A stretch of 36,031 nucleotides of DNA from a virus (IMGVR_UViG_3300029893_000039:1-36031); one strand, 5' to 3'; counted from the first letter of the stretch, positions 1 through 36,031 are shown. Program-made: numbers and translations. The notes: generated by a model from the sequence alone, not told the origin.

Positions 1-44
1 CGAATCTGCACCACTCGCCGAAGCTGCACGACTCGCCGAAGCTG
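1..44. repeat. Contig-end overlap: nt 1-44 identical to nt 35988-36031 (circular-assembly signature)
   Basis: cgaatctgcaccactcgccgaagctgcacgactcgccgaagctg is read at both ends. Joining the ends with this overlap keeps the minus-strand repeat ORF in frame (340 + 410 nt = 750 nt). Confidence 0.85.
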
Positions 45-238
45 CACCCAGCGCCGAAGCGGCACGACTCGCCGAAGCGGCACGACTCGCCGAAGCGGCA
101 CGACTCGCCGAATCTGCACCACTCGCCGAAGCTGCACGACTCGCCGAAGCGGCACGACTCGCCGAAGCGGCACGACTCGCCGAAGCTGCACCCAGCGCCG
201 AAGCTGCACGACTCGCCGAAGCGGCACGACTCGCCGAA
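1..238 (-). repeat. 18-bp tandem repeat array, left part (about 13 units), coding on the minus strand
   Basis: Units such as gcacgactcgccgaagct/gcacgactcgccgaagcg/gcacccagcgccgaagct/gcaccactcgccgaatct follow head to tail. On the minus strand each unit reads F-G-(E/A)-(S/G/W)-C-(S/R). Confidence 0.95.
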
Positions 239-31968: not shown

Positions 31969-32021
31969 GCATAGCTGACCGCGAACGCCACCAGCGTAAT
32001 AATCCAGAATACGCCGCTCAT
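31965..32021 (-). CDS. 18-aa hydrophobic micro-ORF coupling the polymerase to the next gene, speculative
   Basis: AAGGAG lies 8 nt upstream. It reads MSGVFWIITLVAFAVSYA*. There are ATGA overlaps at both ends. Confidence 0.3.
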   Translation of the reverse strand: MSGVFWIITLVAFAVSYA

Positions 32022-34633
32022 TTTGAATACTCCTTCGCATATCCACCTGCGCAGTCCAACGGTACACCTTCGGCATAATCTGGCGCGGAACGCATGACGG
32101 CCTGCGCAAAGCCGAGTGCGTCATCTGCTTCGTCCTCGCGGGCGAGAAACACAACTTCGTCGTGCGTCATCGTCGCCACTTGGTACTTCTGCGCGATGAC
32201 CAGCATCTGGTCGGCCACAATGTCACGCGCGATGGCTTGAACAATGTTTTCCACCAGCGATGCGCCATAGATGCGCTGTTTCGCACCGTACTCAAACCCG
32301 TCACTGGTCAACCGCAAGTCAGGATACGATAGCCAGCGGCCCGAGGGCAAGCGAAGTTTTTGGTAGGATGTCACGATGCCGTGCTGCCAGTCGATGCGCT
32401 CTTCTTGCATCATGGCGCGCAGCATACGATCCGCGCTGCGCCACAGTGCGCGGATTGCAGTGTATGTGCTCCGGTAGGTTGCTACATACCCTGCCGCGTC
32501 GTCAAGCGTCGTGCTTGGTTGCTTGAGAGCAATCTGCGCGTGCAACTTGACGTGGCCGACGCCATACCCAAGTCCGAGAATGCAGTTATGAACAATCACT
32601 GGACCCAAGTCCGTCATCACCGTAAACCGATGGTTCGGACCGCAGTTGAGCAGATCGTAGACTGGCAATTTCTCGCTCAAGCGCAAGGATTCGTTGCGAC
32701 AAGTCGTTAGCTTTTCTGCGGGTGGCGATGTTTTCTTTTCGGGTGACAAACCTGACGTTCCCTGGAGCGTAAGGCCCGTCAACATTGATCCGGTCAAGCT
32801 CAAGCTCTGGAACATCCCACCCTGGAATGGTTTGTATGTACCGAAGAAACGCTGATCGGTCATCTCTCCATTCTTGGCAGACATAAATTCCTCGCTCGCC
32901 ATAACTCGAAAAGGCTGCGTTCCGAGGGTTGTGGCACCGGCCAATGCACGAGGATAGGCGGTTAAGCAGCCGTGTGCGGTGCCCGTCATCCGCGAGCGCG
33001 TCCTTATATTTCCAGTATCGTTTTTTGCTGGCAGCGACTTTCGCGCACGCGTTGCAGCGAGTAGACCTCCCAGATAGGAGATTGTGCCGGTCAACCATCC
33101 CTTCGTTCCCGCAAGAGCATCTGACATACGGGTGCCACCCAGCCATTTGCCCGCTTGATGGGCGAACCATCGGACGCCAGTCGAGGATGGTAAGGTCGCC
33201 GTAAACAGCGCCGACGCTAGCAGGGAACGGTTTTTGAGGACCTCTGACCACTCCGCCCATCCATGTTCCGTCAGGATTTCGTGGTCCGAAGTAGCGTTTA
33301 CGCCGATCCCCCGCAATGTTGGTTTCAGGCCCTGAAACCTCACGCCGCCATGCTTTACCCATGATTCTCCATCCCACACCAAGTCCGTTTCCTTGACCCG
33401 AATAATAGGCTTCCAGCCATTGTTGGTCAAGACTTTGGTGTTGGCTGCTAGGCACGTCTTGCCGACGAAGCGCCGCGCGTCGTCAATCTGCTGCCCAGGC
33501 CAGATTCGCATGGCGAACCGAACGTACACGTCGTCGCCATCAGCGAACTGCTGGAGCAACTCATTCTCTCCCGCCAGCCACGCGAGCACGCGCGCCTCGA
33601 TCTGCGACGAGTCCACAACCACCAGGACATATCCCTCAGGTGCCGTTAGACACTTGCGCAGCGCAGACCCACGGTTGAGATTCTGCATGTTGACGCCGTC
33701 CCATCCAGACCATCGCCCCGTATGCGCCCCGTGATACTTGAGCGGCACAGGCATGACGCCACGTCCAGCCACACCGATGAACTTCTGCGTGCGACGCAGC
33801 TCGGACACGCTCTTAGCTGCAAGCCTTCCGCGCACTAGATGCCCCACATGGGGGTTCTCCAGCAACGCCAGGAAGTCAGTGTCTGTCTTGCGGAAAGTTC
33901 CGGGCACAGCCACGCCATGCGCTGCGAGGACGGATGCGAACTGCGGATTGCTCATCAGCACGCTTTCAAGCACGCCAGCCGAGGCAATAGCTTCATCGCG
34001 CTGCGCCTCAAGCTCAGCCATCCGGTCGTGCAATAAACGTGCATTGACTTCCAGCACCGGCTCGGTGAACAGACGTGTAGTGAGGTCGATCAGCGCCAAC
34101 TCGCGCGCCGCGCGCACGCCGCCCAACGTTGTGACCATGTCCGCGCTCAGGCGCTTGTATAGCTTGCGCAGCAGGTTCACGTCCTGCACGCAATACTCGG
34201 CAAGTTGCTGTTCCAGCAGAGGGTCAAGATCACGCACACCCAGCGTCTTCGCTAGAGCGTCACCTTTGGCGCCCAGGTCGTAATGCTCGGAGAGAGCGGC
34301 CAGTGTATGCTTGCCGTGGTAACGCACGATGCGGCTCATAGCCAGCGTGTCATGGGTGCGCTTTGGCGCGACACCGAAGCGCCAGGACAGGATTGCCATG
34401 TCGAACGGCGCGTTGTGAGCAACCCATATAGCCCCGGGATGCTCGCTATGCAACGCTGACAGCGCAGACTGCACTTGCGCAGGTGGAACCCAATATGGTG
34501 TTGTGTCGTCCACGGCAATGCTGACGCCATGCACCTTGAACCGCTCGTCACGGATGTATTCTTCCGTGCTCATTTTGGTGAGCGAGTACGCACGGTCATA
34601 GTAGGTTTCGAAGTCGATGTAGATAGTCGTCAT
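32018..34633 (-). CDS. Family-A DNA polymerase with 3'-5' exonuclease domain, interrupted by an intein (871 aa precursor)
   Basis: Exonuclease motifs are IYIDFETYYD, WVAHNAPFDMAIL and EYCVQDVNLL. Motif A is VVVDSSQIEARVLAWLAGE. Motif B is split as RRFVGKT / intein / CILGLGYGVG. The start is ATG 34633 (GGAG 8 nt upstream, ATGA overlap) rather than the track start at 34735. Confidence 0.9.
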   Translation of the reverse strand: MTTIYIDFETYYDRAYSLTKMSTEEYIRDERFKVHGVSIAVDDTTPYWVPPAQVQSALSALHSEHPGAIWVAHNAPFDMAILSWRFGVAPKRTHDTLAMSRIVRYHGKHTLAALSEHYDLGAKGDALAKTLGVRDLDPLLEQQLAEYCVQDVNLLRKLYKRLSADMVTTLGGVRAARELALIDLTTRLFTEPVLEVNARLLHDRMAELEAQRDEAIASAGVLESVLMSNPQFASVLAAHGVAVPGTFRKTDTDFLALLENPHVGHLVRGRLAAKSVSELRRTQKFIGVAGRGVMPVPLKYHGAHTGRWSGWDGVNMQNLNRGSALRKCLTAPEGYVLVVVDSSQIEARVLAWLAGENELLQQFADGDDVYVRFAMRIWPGQQIDDARRFVGKTCLAANTKVLTNNGWKPIIRVKETDLVWDGESWVKHGGVRFQGLKPTLRGIGVNATSDHEILTEHGWAEWSEVLKNRSLLASALFTATLPSSTGVRWFAHQAGKWLGGTRMSDALAGTKGWLTGTISYLGGLLAATRARKSLPAKNDTGNIRTRSRMTGTAHGCLTAYPRALAGATTLGTQPFRVMASEEFMSAKNGEMTDQRFFGTYKPFQGGMFQSLSLTGSMLTGLTLQGTSGLSPEKKTSPPAEKLTTCRNESLRLSEKLPVYDLLNCGPNHRFTVMTDLGPVIVHNCILGLGYGVGHVKLHAQIALKQPSTTLDDAAGYVATYRSTYTAIRALWRSADRMLRAMMQEERIDWQHGIVTSYQKLRLPSGRWLSYPDLRLTSDGFEYGAKQRIYGASLVENIVQAIARDIVADQMLVIAQKYQVATMTHDEVVFLAREDEADDALGFAQAVMRSAPDYAEGVPLDCAGGYAKEYSK
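32585..33454 (-). mobile_element. Intein (290 aa) inserted in polymerase motif B
   Basis: In the polymerase frame, block A is CLAANTKVLTNNGWKPI and block B is GVNATSDHEILTEHGW. Blocks F and G are LPVYDLLNCGPNHRF...GPVIVHN, followed by the +1 Cys. Confidence 0.8.
32586..33455 (-). CDS. HNH/zinc-ribbon homing-endonuclease ORF in an alternative frame of the intein (289 codons open; plausible internal start ATG 33362)
   Basis: The alternative frame reads VYGDLTILDW...YVRCSCGNEGMVDRHNLLSGRSTRCNAC...IGRCHNPRNAAFSSYGERGIYVCQEW...ELDRINVDGPYAPGNVRFVTRKEN. GGAG lies 4 nt upstream of ATG 33362. The stop TAA is formed by the His-Asn codons cAT AAc. Confidence 0.6.
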   Translation of the reverse strand: MPSSQHQSLDQQWLEAYYSGQGNGLGVGWRIMGKAWRREVSGPETNIAGDRRKRYFGPRNPDGTWMGGVVRGPQKPFPASVGAVYGDLTILDWRPMVRPSSGQMAGWHPYVRCSCGNEGMVDRHNLLSGRSTRCNACAKVAASKKRYWKYKDALADDGHRTRLLNRLSSCIGRCHNPRNAAFSSYGERGIYVCQEWRDDRSAFLRYIQTIPGWDVPELELDRINVDGPYAPGNVRFVTRKENIATRRKANDLSQRILALEREIASLRSAQLRSEPSVYGDDGLGSSDCS

Positions 34634-34776
34634 GCGCGCCGCTCCACAGTCTTGTCGAGCAGCCAGCCGGTGCGCGTCATGCGAACCATCTGCACACCGC
34701 GTAACCAGCGTACTTGCAGGGTTCGTGTCGGCCAAAGCCTGCGCGCATCATGGCGCAGCGTCATCAGTGATTTCAT
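34630..34776 (-). CDS. Small basic protein (48 aa)
   Basis: RBS is GGAGAAAG. It reads MKSLMTLRHDARRLWPTRTLQVRWLRGVQMVRMTRTGWLLDKTVERRA*. There are ATGA overlaps at both ends. Confidence 0.4.
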   Translation of the reverse strand: MKSLMTLRHDARRLWPTRTLQVRWLRGVQMVRMTRTGWLLDKTVERRA

Positions 34777-35227: not shown

Positions 35228-35581
35228 TCAGAACGGCGCGTGCACGCCAATGTAGAAATTGTGGGCGACGACGCCCCCCTCAATGCCGATGGTCAGCCAC
35301 TGCCAATACCGCCGATCCTGCTCCGGCAACATGCGGCTGATGACGTAGTGTCCGACAGCGCAGCCGAGCATATAGCGATTGACGGCGGCATTGCTTGGAT
35401 GAGGCCCAAGAATCGGGTTTTCCTCTTGGTAGGTGGGTTCGTGCGCGATGTTGTGCGTCTGCAACGTATCCAGCAGCAGCAGGCCGGTGAATGCCAGTTC
35501 ACGATGGGTATCCGCAGGCGTCCACTCTGCGGCGTGCGCAGTGCTGGCGACGAGCAGGAGGGCTAGAAGAAAGGCTTTCAT
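35228..35581 (-). CDS. Secreted / envelope protein with a signal peptide (117 aa), ending in Phe
   Basis: MKAFLLALLLVASTAHA/AEW is a Sec signal with an AHA-A cleavage site. The C-terminus is ...NFYIGVHAPF. It overlaps the repeat gene as ATGA. Confidence 0.6.
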   Translation of the reverse strand: MKAFLLALLLVASTAHAAEWTPADTHRELAFTGLLLLDTLQTHNIAHEPTYQEENPILGPHPSNAAVNRYMLGCAVGHYVISRMLPEQDRRYWQWLTIGIEGGVVAHNFYIGVHAPF

Positions 35582-36031
35582 TTCTCGATCCTTTCCGGGC
35601 ACCAGGTAGCGGCGACGATATTGGCGAAGCTGAGGTATTGCAGTGACTTGAGTCTGTCGTTGTCCTTGCGCACCTTCGCGCGGAACTCATCCAGCGTTCC
35701 GACGAAACACCCGGCGCGCACAAGTGGGCCGTTTTCAACGTTGAATGCATAGATCGTGCGATGGGCCGATCCACCGCCTCCAAATGACATCAGCGGGTAT
35801 CCTGCAAGTGCTTTGCGGTTGCCCTCGAAGCTGCACCCCGCGCCGAAGCTGCACCACGCGCCGAATCTGCACCACTCGCCGAAGCTGCACAACTCGCCGA
35901 AGCTGCACCCAGCGCCGAAGCTGCACGACTCGCTGAAGCTGCACAACTCGCCGAAGCCGCACCCCACGCCGAAGCGGCACGACTCGCCGAATCTGCACCA
36001 CTCGCCGAAGCTGCACGACTCGCCGAAGCTG
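35578..36031 (-). CDS. Cys-containing hexapeptide-repeat protein, C-terminal part (continuation of 340..1)
   Basis: The frame is open to the right edge. It reads ...FGESCR FGVGCG FGELCS FSESCS FGAGCS FGELCS FGEWCR FGAWCS FGAGCS FEGNRK and then a non-repetitive domain ...GGGGSAHRTIYAFNVENGPLVRAGCFVGTLDEFRAKVRKDNDRLKSLQYLSFANIVAATWCPERIEK*. Confidence 0.7.
   Translation of the reverse strand, partial: SFGESCSFGEWCRFGESCRFGVGCGFGELCSFSESCSFGAGCSFGELCSFGEWCRFGAWCSFGAGCSFEGNRKALAGYPLMSFGGGGSAHRTIYAFNVENGPLVRAGCFVGTLDEFRAKVRKDNDRLKSLQYLSFANIVAATWCPERIEK
35824..36031 (-). repeat. 18-bp tandem repeat array, right part (about 11.5 units)
   Basis: The same unit family as in 1..238. This part is more diverged (gcacaactcgccgaagct, gcaccacgcgccgaatct, gcaccccacgccgaagcg). 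Confidence 0.95.

Follow-up and report, generated by a model that had tools for sequence, protein, structure and literature searches.

An intein in a phage family-A DNA polymerase gene that overlaps an out-of-frame gene for a putative HNH-like nuclease: a computational analysis

Can the same stretch of DNA serve as an intein in one reading frame and encode a nuclease in another, and if so, how would the second protein be made? The question is raised by the family-A DNA polymerase gene of the metagenomic virus contig IMGVR_UViG_3300029893_000039 (positions 1-36031; the window, in what follows, is this whole stretch of 36,031 nucleotides (nt)). An initial annotation had noted that the polymerase is split inside motif B by 290 amino acids (aa) bearing Hint signatures, and that an endonuclease seems to be overprinted on them; its statements about the sequence are all correct, the gene lying on the minus strand. 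Taking the evidence below together, we regard the region as a two-gene mobile element in motif B of the phage polymerase gene, with a probability of about 0.8.

An intein in motif B

The longest polymerase open reading frame (ORF) extends over 32018-34735 on the minus strand, with 905 codons and a TTG start; the features of the called gene are collected in Table 1. The precursor matches the Pfam families DNA_pol_A and DNA_pol_A_exo1 as well as PHROG 17 (DNA polymerase), and the DNA_pol_A match ends at aa 427, directly before the insert. The latter comprises polymerase aa 428-717 and interrupts motif B in the context RRFVGKT / ... VIVHN / CILGLGYGVG; it begins with CLAANTKVLT, includes TSDHEILT and finishes with VIVHN, the next residue being Cys. 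All catalytic residues of class 1 are present (C1, T55 and H58 of TSDH, H289-N290 and C+1), and in alignments of 54 and 18 sequences Cys1, the Thr and His of block B, the terminal Asn and Cys+1 vary little or not at all. The possibility that homologous polymerases carry the 290 aa as a normal segment was checked, and homologues exist that lack exactly that segment, such as P0003 and P0004 (581 aa), which equal the precursor minus 290 aa. The insert has these marks of a class 1 intein: it is in frame, it sits at a conserved host site and homologues occur without exactly this segment. From the intact motifs and the essential role of the polymerase we infer that the precursor protein is spliced.

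Neither the whole precursor nor the isolated insert nor a mini-intein with the linker deleted matched a Hint model of Pfam or NCBIfam above threshold. Single-sequence profile matches were weak (TIGR01445, E=0.07; Mtu RecA intein, 0.04), and Pfam Hint_2 matched 4 of 18 relatives, at best with 0.0023. Since no above-threshold Hint match was available from these collections, we turned to a family profile and to fold prediction. A profile of the two intein ends, built from 18 relatives, retrieves only inteins from the PDB (Neq Pol split intein, 2.6e-4; Mtu RecA, 3e-3; Spl DnaX, 6.5e-3), so that the search with intein profiles divides into a family profile that finds inteins exclusively and curated models that fall short on the single sequence. 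In an AlphaFold2 model based on 54 sequences, intein residues ~1-90 and ~257-290 have pLDDT (predicted local distance difference test) scores above 90, and the ~160 residues between the Hint ends score below 50 and have no secondary structure. When this polymerase-frame model was compared with the PDB by Foldseek, 46 of 47 matches were inteins or Hint-type domains (BIL and Vint included), the inteins being gp41-1, Ssp DnaB, Spl DnaX, Npu DnaB, Mtu RecA and others, with mini-inteins matching Hint-N; the best match was gp41-1 (E=4e-4, probability 1.00). As modeled, the polymerase-frame ends of the insert have the HINT fold. A self-splicing intron was rejected as an alternative vehicle, given that no intron-like RNA was found (no Rfam match at E<=1), that the host frame is open and that the Hint fold is predicted.

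Table 1. Features of the polymerase gene, its intein and the nested gene (window coordinates)
Feature	Position	Strand	Remarks
Family-A DNA polymerase precursor gene	32018..34633	minus	871 aa from the called ATG at 34633 (P0001)
N-extein: 3'-5' exonuclease domain and polymerase up to motif B RRFVGKT	33455..34633	minus	collinear with the intein-free alleles L007 and L129
Intein, 290 codons, polymerase frame	32585..33454	minus	Cys1 to terminal His-Asn, then Cys+1
Hint-N splicing subdomain	33185..33454	minus	intein aa 1 to ~90; Cys1, WDGxxW, block B TSDH
Predicted -35 hexamer TTGACC	33425..33430	minus	intein codons 9-10, Leu-Thr
Predicted -10 hexamer TATTAT	33402..33407	minus	17-nt spacer; intein codons 16-18
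GGAG, Shine-Dalgarno-like core	33367..33370	minus	4 nt upstream of the ATG at 33362; W-D-G-E codons
Putative nuclease start codon ATG	33360..33362	minus	last base of the Ser codon plus TG of the second Trp of WDGESW (intein aa 32)
Nested putative nuclease gene, polymerase -1 (+2) frame	32586..33362	minus	258 aa plus TAA; 134 called homologues
Intein linker, polymerase frame	32687..33184	minus	aa ~91-256 (~160 residues); sequence not conserved, predicted disordered
Zinc-ribbon-like CxC...CxxC (C82, C84, C103, C106)	33045..33119	minus	invariant in 83 sequences; predicted beta hairpins
Predicted beta-beta-alpha motif (...LDR...PGNVRF...ENIAT)	32721..32801	minus	nuclease aa 188-214; secondary structure, invariant columns
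C-terminal coiled-coil helix	32643..32711	minus	nuclease aa 218-240; possible dimerization element
Hint-C splicing subdomain, blocks F and G (PVYDLLNCGPNHRF...VIVHN)	32585..32686	minus	~34 aa; pLDDT >90, pairwise identity 0.50
C-extein: Cys+1, CILGLGYGVG..., rest of motif B, polymerase C-terminus	32018..32584	minus	stop included; from ORF list and collinearity

A second reading frame under selection

The polymerase -1 frame is open from 33455 to the TAA at 32586-32588, a stop that arises from the terminal His-Asn codons CAT AAC. Both frames thus remain open for about 870 nt, as first annotated, and the third frame over the same DNA carries 21 stops. At 58% G+C, the composition of the window, long alternative ORFs are not rare. 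We simulated the situation by recoding the 258-codon nuclease ORF synonymously (with extein or its own codon usage) or by shuffling its codons, and counted the stops that appeared in the polymerase frame. The mean was 3.9-4.4 stops, and the probability of finding none was 0.001-0.019 (0.1-1.9% of trials); in six related loci (48-62% G+C) the expectation was 3.4-10.9 stops, and P(open) was <=0.026 in each. Because recoded or shuffled ORFs rarely keep the polymerase frame open, the double openness exceeds chance. In none of the seven loci does a Leu or Val codon ending in TG precede a codon that begins with A; NTY codons are used there.

Amino-acid conservation changes frame along the element. 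Mean pairwise identities over seven diverse loci were 0.51 and 0.49 for Hint-N in the polymerase frame and 0.35 for its overlapped part in the nuclease frame, while the linker reached 0.23 in the polymerase frame and 0.46 in the nuclease frame. The DNA of the nuclease core gave 0.28 and 0.61, respectively, and in the nuclease frame Hint-C fell to 0.33. The low linker identity, together with the pLDDT below 50, bears out the original description of the sequence between the Hint halves as featureless. A codon-position test on 78 unique inteins (174 pairs at 70-97% identity) agrees: polymerase position 3 varies most in Hint-N upstream of the nuclease start (0.33 vs 0.13 and 0.08), in the overlapped part of Hint-N (0.23) and in Hint-C (0.33), and over the entire linker it is polymerase position 2, that is, nuclease position 3, that varies most (0.44-0.49 vs 0.10-0.20). 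A second codon position that is the most variable one means that the amino-acid sequence of the linker is unselected and that only its openness is maintained. Hint-N residues 32-73 and the nuclease N-terminus are encoded by the same DNA.

These observations make it practically certain that the region is a dual-coded element, an intein plus a nuclease-family ORF, with selection acting in both frames. The layout proposed at the outset, with splicing domains in the polymerase frame and the nuclease overprinted in another, is likewise what the fold models and the frame-dependent substitutions point to, and the locus is an out-of-frame intein by its same-strand nuclease ORF in another frame, its open and unstructured linker and its frame-dependent selection. 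One could suppose that the polymerase-frame linker is a real but unrecognized domain and the -1 ORF a by-product, as the maintained openness of that frame and a single linker Gly that is invariant among 54 sequences might suggest. We consider this highly improbable: the linker is modeled without structure and has a low pairwise identity, the variability of its second codon positions is incompatible with selection on its amino acids, and the -1 product is well folded in prediction and has free-standing homologues.

With megablast, the polymerase gene found no match in the phage collection, and relatives were for this reason reached through protein searches. The -1 frame protein matched 843 phage records by tblastn, the best matches being about 155 Jersey-like Salmonella phages (42% identity), where they fall in genes called 'intein-containing DNA polymerase precursor'. 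In phage vB_SenS-Ent1 (L001), for example, a 247-codon nuclease homologue lies in the -1 frame of the annotated polymerase intein; this intein starts in the frame of the coding sequence and its annotation reads 'encoding splicing domains' only. Five IMG/VR contigs carry the layout of the window, and a profile search added 117 loci from 80 IMG/VR contigs and 37 genome contigs. Ninety-three of these are nested as in the window and 19, from metagenome-assembled genomes of Firmicutes/Clostridia, are nested in the homologous polymerase intein with the nuclease in the other alternative frame; three are free-standing genes (L107, L108, L127), one has a broken polymerase frame (L047) and one is a truncated remnant (L096). 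Among the 120 best polymerase homologues, 88 have the insert and about 32 do not. The nuclease hidden Markov model matched none of the 120 polymerase proteins, which means that in the 88 intein-bearing ones the nuclease is never in frame.

This recurrence bears on the most obvious artifact, namely that indels from sequencing or assembly have shifted the frame of a conventional intein whose HNH domain is really in frame. The contig is metagenomic, and inteins with HNH in frame are known, as cited in the Gosselin et al. preprint discussed below; however, two compensating indels would be required, the same offset recurs in >90 loci and in finished genomes of cultured phages, and in-frame nucleases number 0 of 88. 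Moreover, the sharing of DNA between Hint-N 32-73 and the nuclease N-terminus makes a single frame impossible, and the polymerase frame is open against expectation (P <=0.026). An indel origin is accordingly so improbable that we give it next to no weight.

Several relatives are of interest in their own right. In the Firmicutes/Clostridia loci (L106, L109-L126) the same polymerase intein and nuclease family occur with the nuclease in the +1 frame, and a candidate start is the ATG formed by the GAT-GG codons of WDG. In motif B, homologous elements of intein plus nuclease are found at either of two insertion points, 4 codons (12 nt) apart: GK(T/A)|C(I/V/E)LG in the window, Ent1 and L005 (24 of the 88 proteins) and K(T/S)xxLG|CGY in L002-L004 and L006 (64 of the 88). 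Locus L047 (2250-3300; IMGVR_UViG_3300008103_000056) has four polymerase-frame stops (2628, 2757, 2841, 2856), all in the linker, with Hint-N, Hint-C and the nuclease ORF intact and a downstream piece starting at an ATG at 2859; it is a candidate for a split-intein ('fractured') polymerase gene, or else a dead gene. The remnant on Paraburkholderia sp. plasmid pTA2.1 (L096, 2382-3329) retains part of Hint-N, the nuclease ORF, Hint-C and a short C-extein piece, with no polymerase upstream of it. Salmonella phage Ijeoma (L128, 637-3735) has its whole 1032-aa polymerase precursor labeled 'endonuclease', and the nested ORF of phage LPSE1 is entered separately as an uncharacterized protein (BFVD A0A1L7DRS1). 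In the gp34 helicase gene of Ent1 (L001, 4853-5822) a second, conventional intein is annotated with an in-frame LAGLIDADG endonuclease; as it differs in layout from the polymerase intein, both intein architectures coexist in one phage.

Predicted expression signals and character of the nested protein

The initial annotation argued that the nuclease needs either separate initiation or frameshifting, and pointed to an ATG at 33362 with GGAG 4 nt upstream. Both signals are where they were said to be (Table 1), and the conservation of the start codon supports independent initiation. The base that precedes the Trp32 codon was A in 55, G in 23, T in 5 and C in none of 83 unique loci, that is, A in 66% and C in 0%, against a background of 26% A and 28% C before other Trp codons. 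As C never occurs there, every locus has a permissible start codon, with a strong preference for ATG; in Ent1, too, an ATG is formed by the base of the preceding codon and the TG of TGG. A G-rich stretch resembling a Shine-Dalgarno (SD) sequence, provided by the W-D-G-(E) codons, lies 8-14 nt upstream of the nuclease start throughout the family. The ORF first outlined began with a GTG at 33455; since stops interrupt the nuclease frame of 52 of 78 loci upstream of the conserved start, that GTG is unlikely as a start.

A sigma-70-like promoter is predicted on the coding strand within Hint-N, in a region where one chance match is expected. At this fixed position, 60 of 78 unique loci have a match of >=9/12, compared with 1.1% for equal windows elsewhere in the inteins, and two of the 60 are perfect (TTGACA-17-TATAAT). 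The codons beneath it are biased: Leu9 is TTG in 61 of 72 cases (extein background 14%), Thr10 is ACA in 57% (18%) and Ile17 is ATA in 51% (11%), while codon 16 ends in T in 67 of 78 loci (background 18%), also where the amino acid differs (CCT, GAT, CGT, TCT, AGT, TGT). In the Firmicutes group the promoter pattern is absent despite the same encoded residues (V-L-T ... P-I-E), which indicates that the pattern is no by-product of the protein sequence.

A programmed -1 frameshift, yielding a fusion of N-extein, Hint-N and nuclease in place of a separately initiated protein, would fit the fact that the nuclease frame is the polymerase -1 frame in the group of the window, where it is moreover open back to the intein start. 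Canonical X_XXY_YYZ slippery heptamers, however, are confined to 6 of 83 loci, where their position is not conserved, and frameshifting was rejected as the main route. The upstream nuclease-frame stops of most relatives also speak against it, as does the conservation of start codon and promoter at synonymous sites, and the Firmicutes group, being in the +1 frame, would need a different mechanism; such a fusion is thus very unlikely. Expression of the nuclease from its own start codon, in turn, appears highly likely from these patterns, and the involvement of the internal promoter is favored with less assurance. Given the conservation of promoter, SD-like stretch and start, the most likely prediction is a separate short transcript beginning near intein nt 60 and carrying its own ribosome-binding site.

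The nested protein was modeled with AlphaFold2 from 83 sequences (mean pLDDT 85.6). The model shows, in order, a beta-hairpin zinc ribbon, a helical region, a beta-beta-alpha element (188-214) and a long C-terminal helix. In the beta-beta-alpha element the predicted strands (188-191, 203-206) and the following helix (208-214) have pLDDT >90, and D190, R191 and N202 are invariant in the 83 sequences, N211 and N214 nearly so. The topology is, in prediction only, that of the beta-beta-alpha metal finger of HNH/His-Me finger enzymes; the conserved Asn in the second strand or loop (N202) and Asn in the helix (N211, N214) are those of HNH proteins, but the position of the catalytic first His, at the end of the first strand, is taken by Arg191 (D190-R191). 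The C-terminal helix has coiled-coil character, with bZIP and coiled-coil Pfam matches in many family members and coiled-coil matches in the PDB.

In sequence comparisons the protein matches PHROG 374, 'HNH endonuclease', with E=2.9e-31, the PHROG match to endonuclease VII being weak (1e-4), and 109 BFVD structures match its model at E<=1e-3, many of them named HNH, AP2 or homing endonuclease. A PDB profile search with the nuclease family returned coiled coils only. The HNH label is thus partly justified, its positive evidence being PHROG families named HNH and BFVD names. Where the initial annotation saw a typical phage HNH/zinc-ribbon endonuclease, the zinc ribbon is indeed invariant and PHROG supports HNH, but the search for HNH profiles in Pfam and NCBIfam came back empty and Arg replaces the first His. 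Without a match in Pfam, NCBIfam or solved structures, and with that Arg, 'HNH-like' is the label we chose, for what is presumably a nuclease of a family without Pfam assignment.

Evidence of mobility, comparison with known systems and significance

Alignment with intein-containing and intein-free homologues, as suggested when the locus was first described, brought out occupied alleles and nearly identical empty ones. The empty allele L007 (P0003, 581 aa) is collinear with the spliced window gene and 98.5% identical to it in DNA, yet 13 of the 27 differences fall at -7 to +32 of the insertion point. Another empty allele, L129 (94.6% identical), has most of the flank bases of L007, and the flanks of the window partly match a distant occupied allele, L008 (74% identical), mainly at +19 to +36. 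Such a divergence pattern is what co-conversion during homing would leave. The spliced Ent1 junction matches 380 records of Jersey-like phages, in some split by ~900 nt and in others continuous; the continuous, empty matches include S106 and S138 (95.9% identity) and phage Jersey itself. The insert therefore has the marks of a mobile element, being sporadic among close relatives and accompanied by a sequence disturbance concentrated around the insertion site, and we think it likely that the nested protein acts as a homing nuclease. Besides the synonymous patch, L007 has changed motif B residues (GKI-CILALGFG vs GKT-CILGLGYG in the window), and P0018 carries a further variant, GKICRLALQFG; these may be cleavage-resistant targets.

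The protein might, on the other hand, not be a nuclease, or never have been one, but a DNA-binding or regulatory protein in an intein that is inherited vertically and lost occasionally. The invariant Arg at the catalytic His position, which free-standing relatives share, is in line with this, as are the lack of a Pfam HNH match and of a significant match to a solved HNH structure, and the annotation of some relatives as AP2 or DNA-binding. Strong purifying selection on the ORF argues otherwise, together with the sporadic distribution, the empty alleles that are 98.5% and 95.9% identical and the clustering of divergence at the insertion site; relatives also occur at positions typical of free-standing homing endonucleases, for example between erf and ssb in phage Lb, and the two insertion points and two frames of homologous elements imply repeated movement. 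We give this alternative a small but real chance.

The two-gene mobile element that we prefer would work as follows. Gene 1 would be a class-1 mini-intein in the polymerase frame, in which Hint-N (~90 aa) and Hint-C (~34 aa) co-fold and rejoin the polymerase, the linker (~160 residues) forming a disordered loop whose sole requirement would be the absence of a stop codon. The DNA of this loop would encode gene 2, a 258-aa site-specific nuclease in the polymerase -1 frame, most likely produced independently of the polymerase from a promoter, a G-rich SD-like stretch and an xxA-TGG start at Trp32 that would all be embedded in the Hint-N coding sequence. Polymerase alleles that have no intein would be cut by the nuclease close to the motif-B DNA, and repair from the occupied allele would copy intein and nuclease along with some tens of flanking bases. 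Four of these steps are ones that we infer: that the protein splices, that the internal promoter is transcribed from, that translation begins at the ATG, and that the DNA is cleaved with homing as the result.

A number of points weigh against this account. The case is computational at every step. Curated intein models stay below threshold on the window sequence, TIGR01445 and Pfam Hint alike. The loci are phylogenetically related, and their counts therefore overstate independence. The promoter is a consensus match, with 18 of 78 loci under the 9/12 threshold, and its absence from the related Firmicutes group means that it is no universal requirement. The flank patch could also reflect recombination or target-site immunity. 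As for the nuclease, no Pfam or NCBIfam HNH match was obtained for the window protein, 82 relatives or 7 distant relatives, and no significant match to a solved structure, the best HNH hit by Foldseek being 4h9d with E=0.9. The Arg at the first-His position is invariant in the 83 members and in free-standing relatives (Pseudomonas phage D3 orf30.5, Lactobacillus phage Lb orf39), and since HNH enzymes carry their catalytic His there, catalysis is unproven.

The initial annotation knew of no described case of this arrangement. That part does not stand, as out-of-frame intein nucleases have been reported by Gosselin et al. in 2025 and Phillips et al. in 2026; the comparisons that follow refer to the accessible portions of these and of the ShiLan report. 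Gosselin, Arsenault and Gogarten (bioRxiv 10.1101/2025.01.02.630785) describe actinophage inteins with an endonuclease VII-like nuclease in 'frame 3', as well as antisense LAGLIDADG and VSR-like nucleases. As in the window, the nuclease frame differs from that of extein and splicing domain and the in-frame linker has no recognizable structure; the authors propose an origin by invasion of a free-standing nuclease gene. Their nuclease matches T4 endonuclease VII over residues 1-67, whereas that of the window has a zinc ribbon and then a distal beta-beta-alpha element, and their host genes are terminase, minor capsid, thymidylate synthase (ThyX) and pol III alpha, not PolA.

Closer in several respects is the cyanobacterial dnaX intein with a LAGLIDADG nuclease in the +2 ORF (Phillips et al., bioRxiv 10.64898/2026.09.14.751524). 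It shares with the window the splicing domains in the host frame, a disordered linker, a folded endonuclease in an overlapping ORF on the same strand, SD-like motifs before the nuclease start, frame-dependent selection and both occupied and empty alleles, and the proposal made for it is that a free-standing endonuclease secondarily invaded a mini-intein. Its host is a cellular gene (DNA pol III gamma/tau) and its nuclease LAGLIDADG, against phage PolA and an HNH-like protein here; the accessible text mentions no internal promoter, second frame offset or second insertion point. In the window, unlike dnaX as described in that text, the predicted expression signals and the first ~40 nuclease codons overlap a functional Hint-N.

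Another out-of-frame 'hidden HNH' lies in the ShiLan-domain insertion of a mycobacteriophage methylase (Arsenault et al., Genes 2025, PMC11855218), likewise an HNH ORF in an insertion that is open in the host frame. In both, the stop TAA falls in the last four bases (TAAC) of the insertion, 32585-32588 in the window; this shared ending may be coincidence, or may hint at descent of ShiLan from a decayed intein. Because ShiLan has no detectable splicing domain, its insertion is thought to stay in the protein. No ribosome-binding site was found for it, whereas the window has a clear Hint domain and predicted expression signals.

In the fractured genes of Dassa et al. (NAR 2009, PMC2677866), split inteins flank a free-standing homing endonuclease gene, of the GIY-YIG or Vsr-like families, which lies between the intein halves with short coding overlaps with the downstream half; an invasion model was put forward for them. 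The polymerase frame of the window is continuous, and its intein therefore counts as cis-splicing and the gene as not split; a fractured form appears among its relatives only in L047, with its four linker stops.

I-HmuI and I-BasI are HNH nicking endonucleases encoded by group I introns in phage DNA polymerase genes. I-PfoP3I is a further enzyme of this kind (PMC3428280). Like the element of the window, these are selfish, target conserved parts of phage family-A polymerases and have a separate nuclease ORF inside a self-splicing element; their vehicle, however, is an RNA intron, and the window has no intron-like RNA, an open host frame and a predicted Hint fold.

In the literature we found no description of the motif-B intein of Jersey-like phage polymerases with its nested nuclease, and the GenBank records annotate only the long ORF, sometimes as 'endonuclease'. 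As far as the accessible parts of the earlier reports go, nuclease family and host gene are unlike the out-of-frame cases described (EndoVII-like, LAGLIDADG; terminase, capsid, ThyX, pol III). What is added to them is another nuclease family, an ORF and signals that overlap the splicing blocks, a predicted internal promoter, two frame offsets, two insertion points and a probable split derivative.

As to the contig itself, window positions 1-238 and 35826-36031 hold the same 18-nt tandem array (CGAAGCTGCAC[G/C]ACTCGC), in 13.2 and 11.4 copies. The array is part of an ORF on the minus strand (35578-35967) and encodes a hexapeptide repeat (..CSFG..). The contig is probably an essentially complete, circularly assembled phage genome of ~36 kb, broken in the 18-nt repeat.

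Inteins with out-of-frame nucleases thus extend beyond actinophages and cyanobacteria to a large family of phage DNA polymerases, which includes about 150 Salmonella phages that are in culture and sequenced and in which the nested gene mostly carries no annotation or a wrong one; gene callers that admit one ORF per locus systematically overlook such genes. The signals proposed here, a promoter, a ribosome-binding site and a start codon overprinted on a splicing domain, offer a testable expression route for a hidden gene, and the coexistence of free-standing, nested (in two frames), split and empty versions bears on the old question whether inteins acquired their nucleases through invasion by free-standing genes, and on how split inteins form. 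More tentatively, at a little under even odds, Hint-N may be triple-layered, its DNA coding for the splicing domain, holding a sigma-70 promoter with ribosome-binding site and encoding the first ~40 nuclease codons, and the family may preserve stages of intein evolution: the free-standing gene, genes nested in both alternative frames and never in frame, two insertion points, and the split copy L047. If this is true, a once free-standing homing endonuclease gene would have become a self-contained expression cassette hidden in an intein, and the cultured Jersey-like phages of Salmonella would be an experimental system for the origin of endonuclease-bearing and split inteins.

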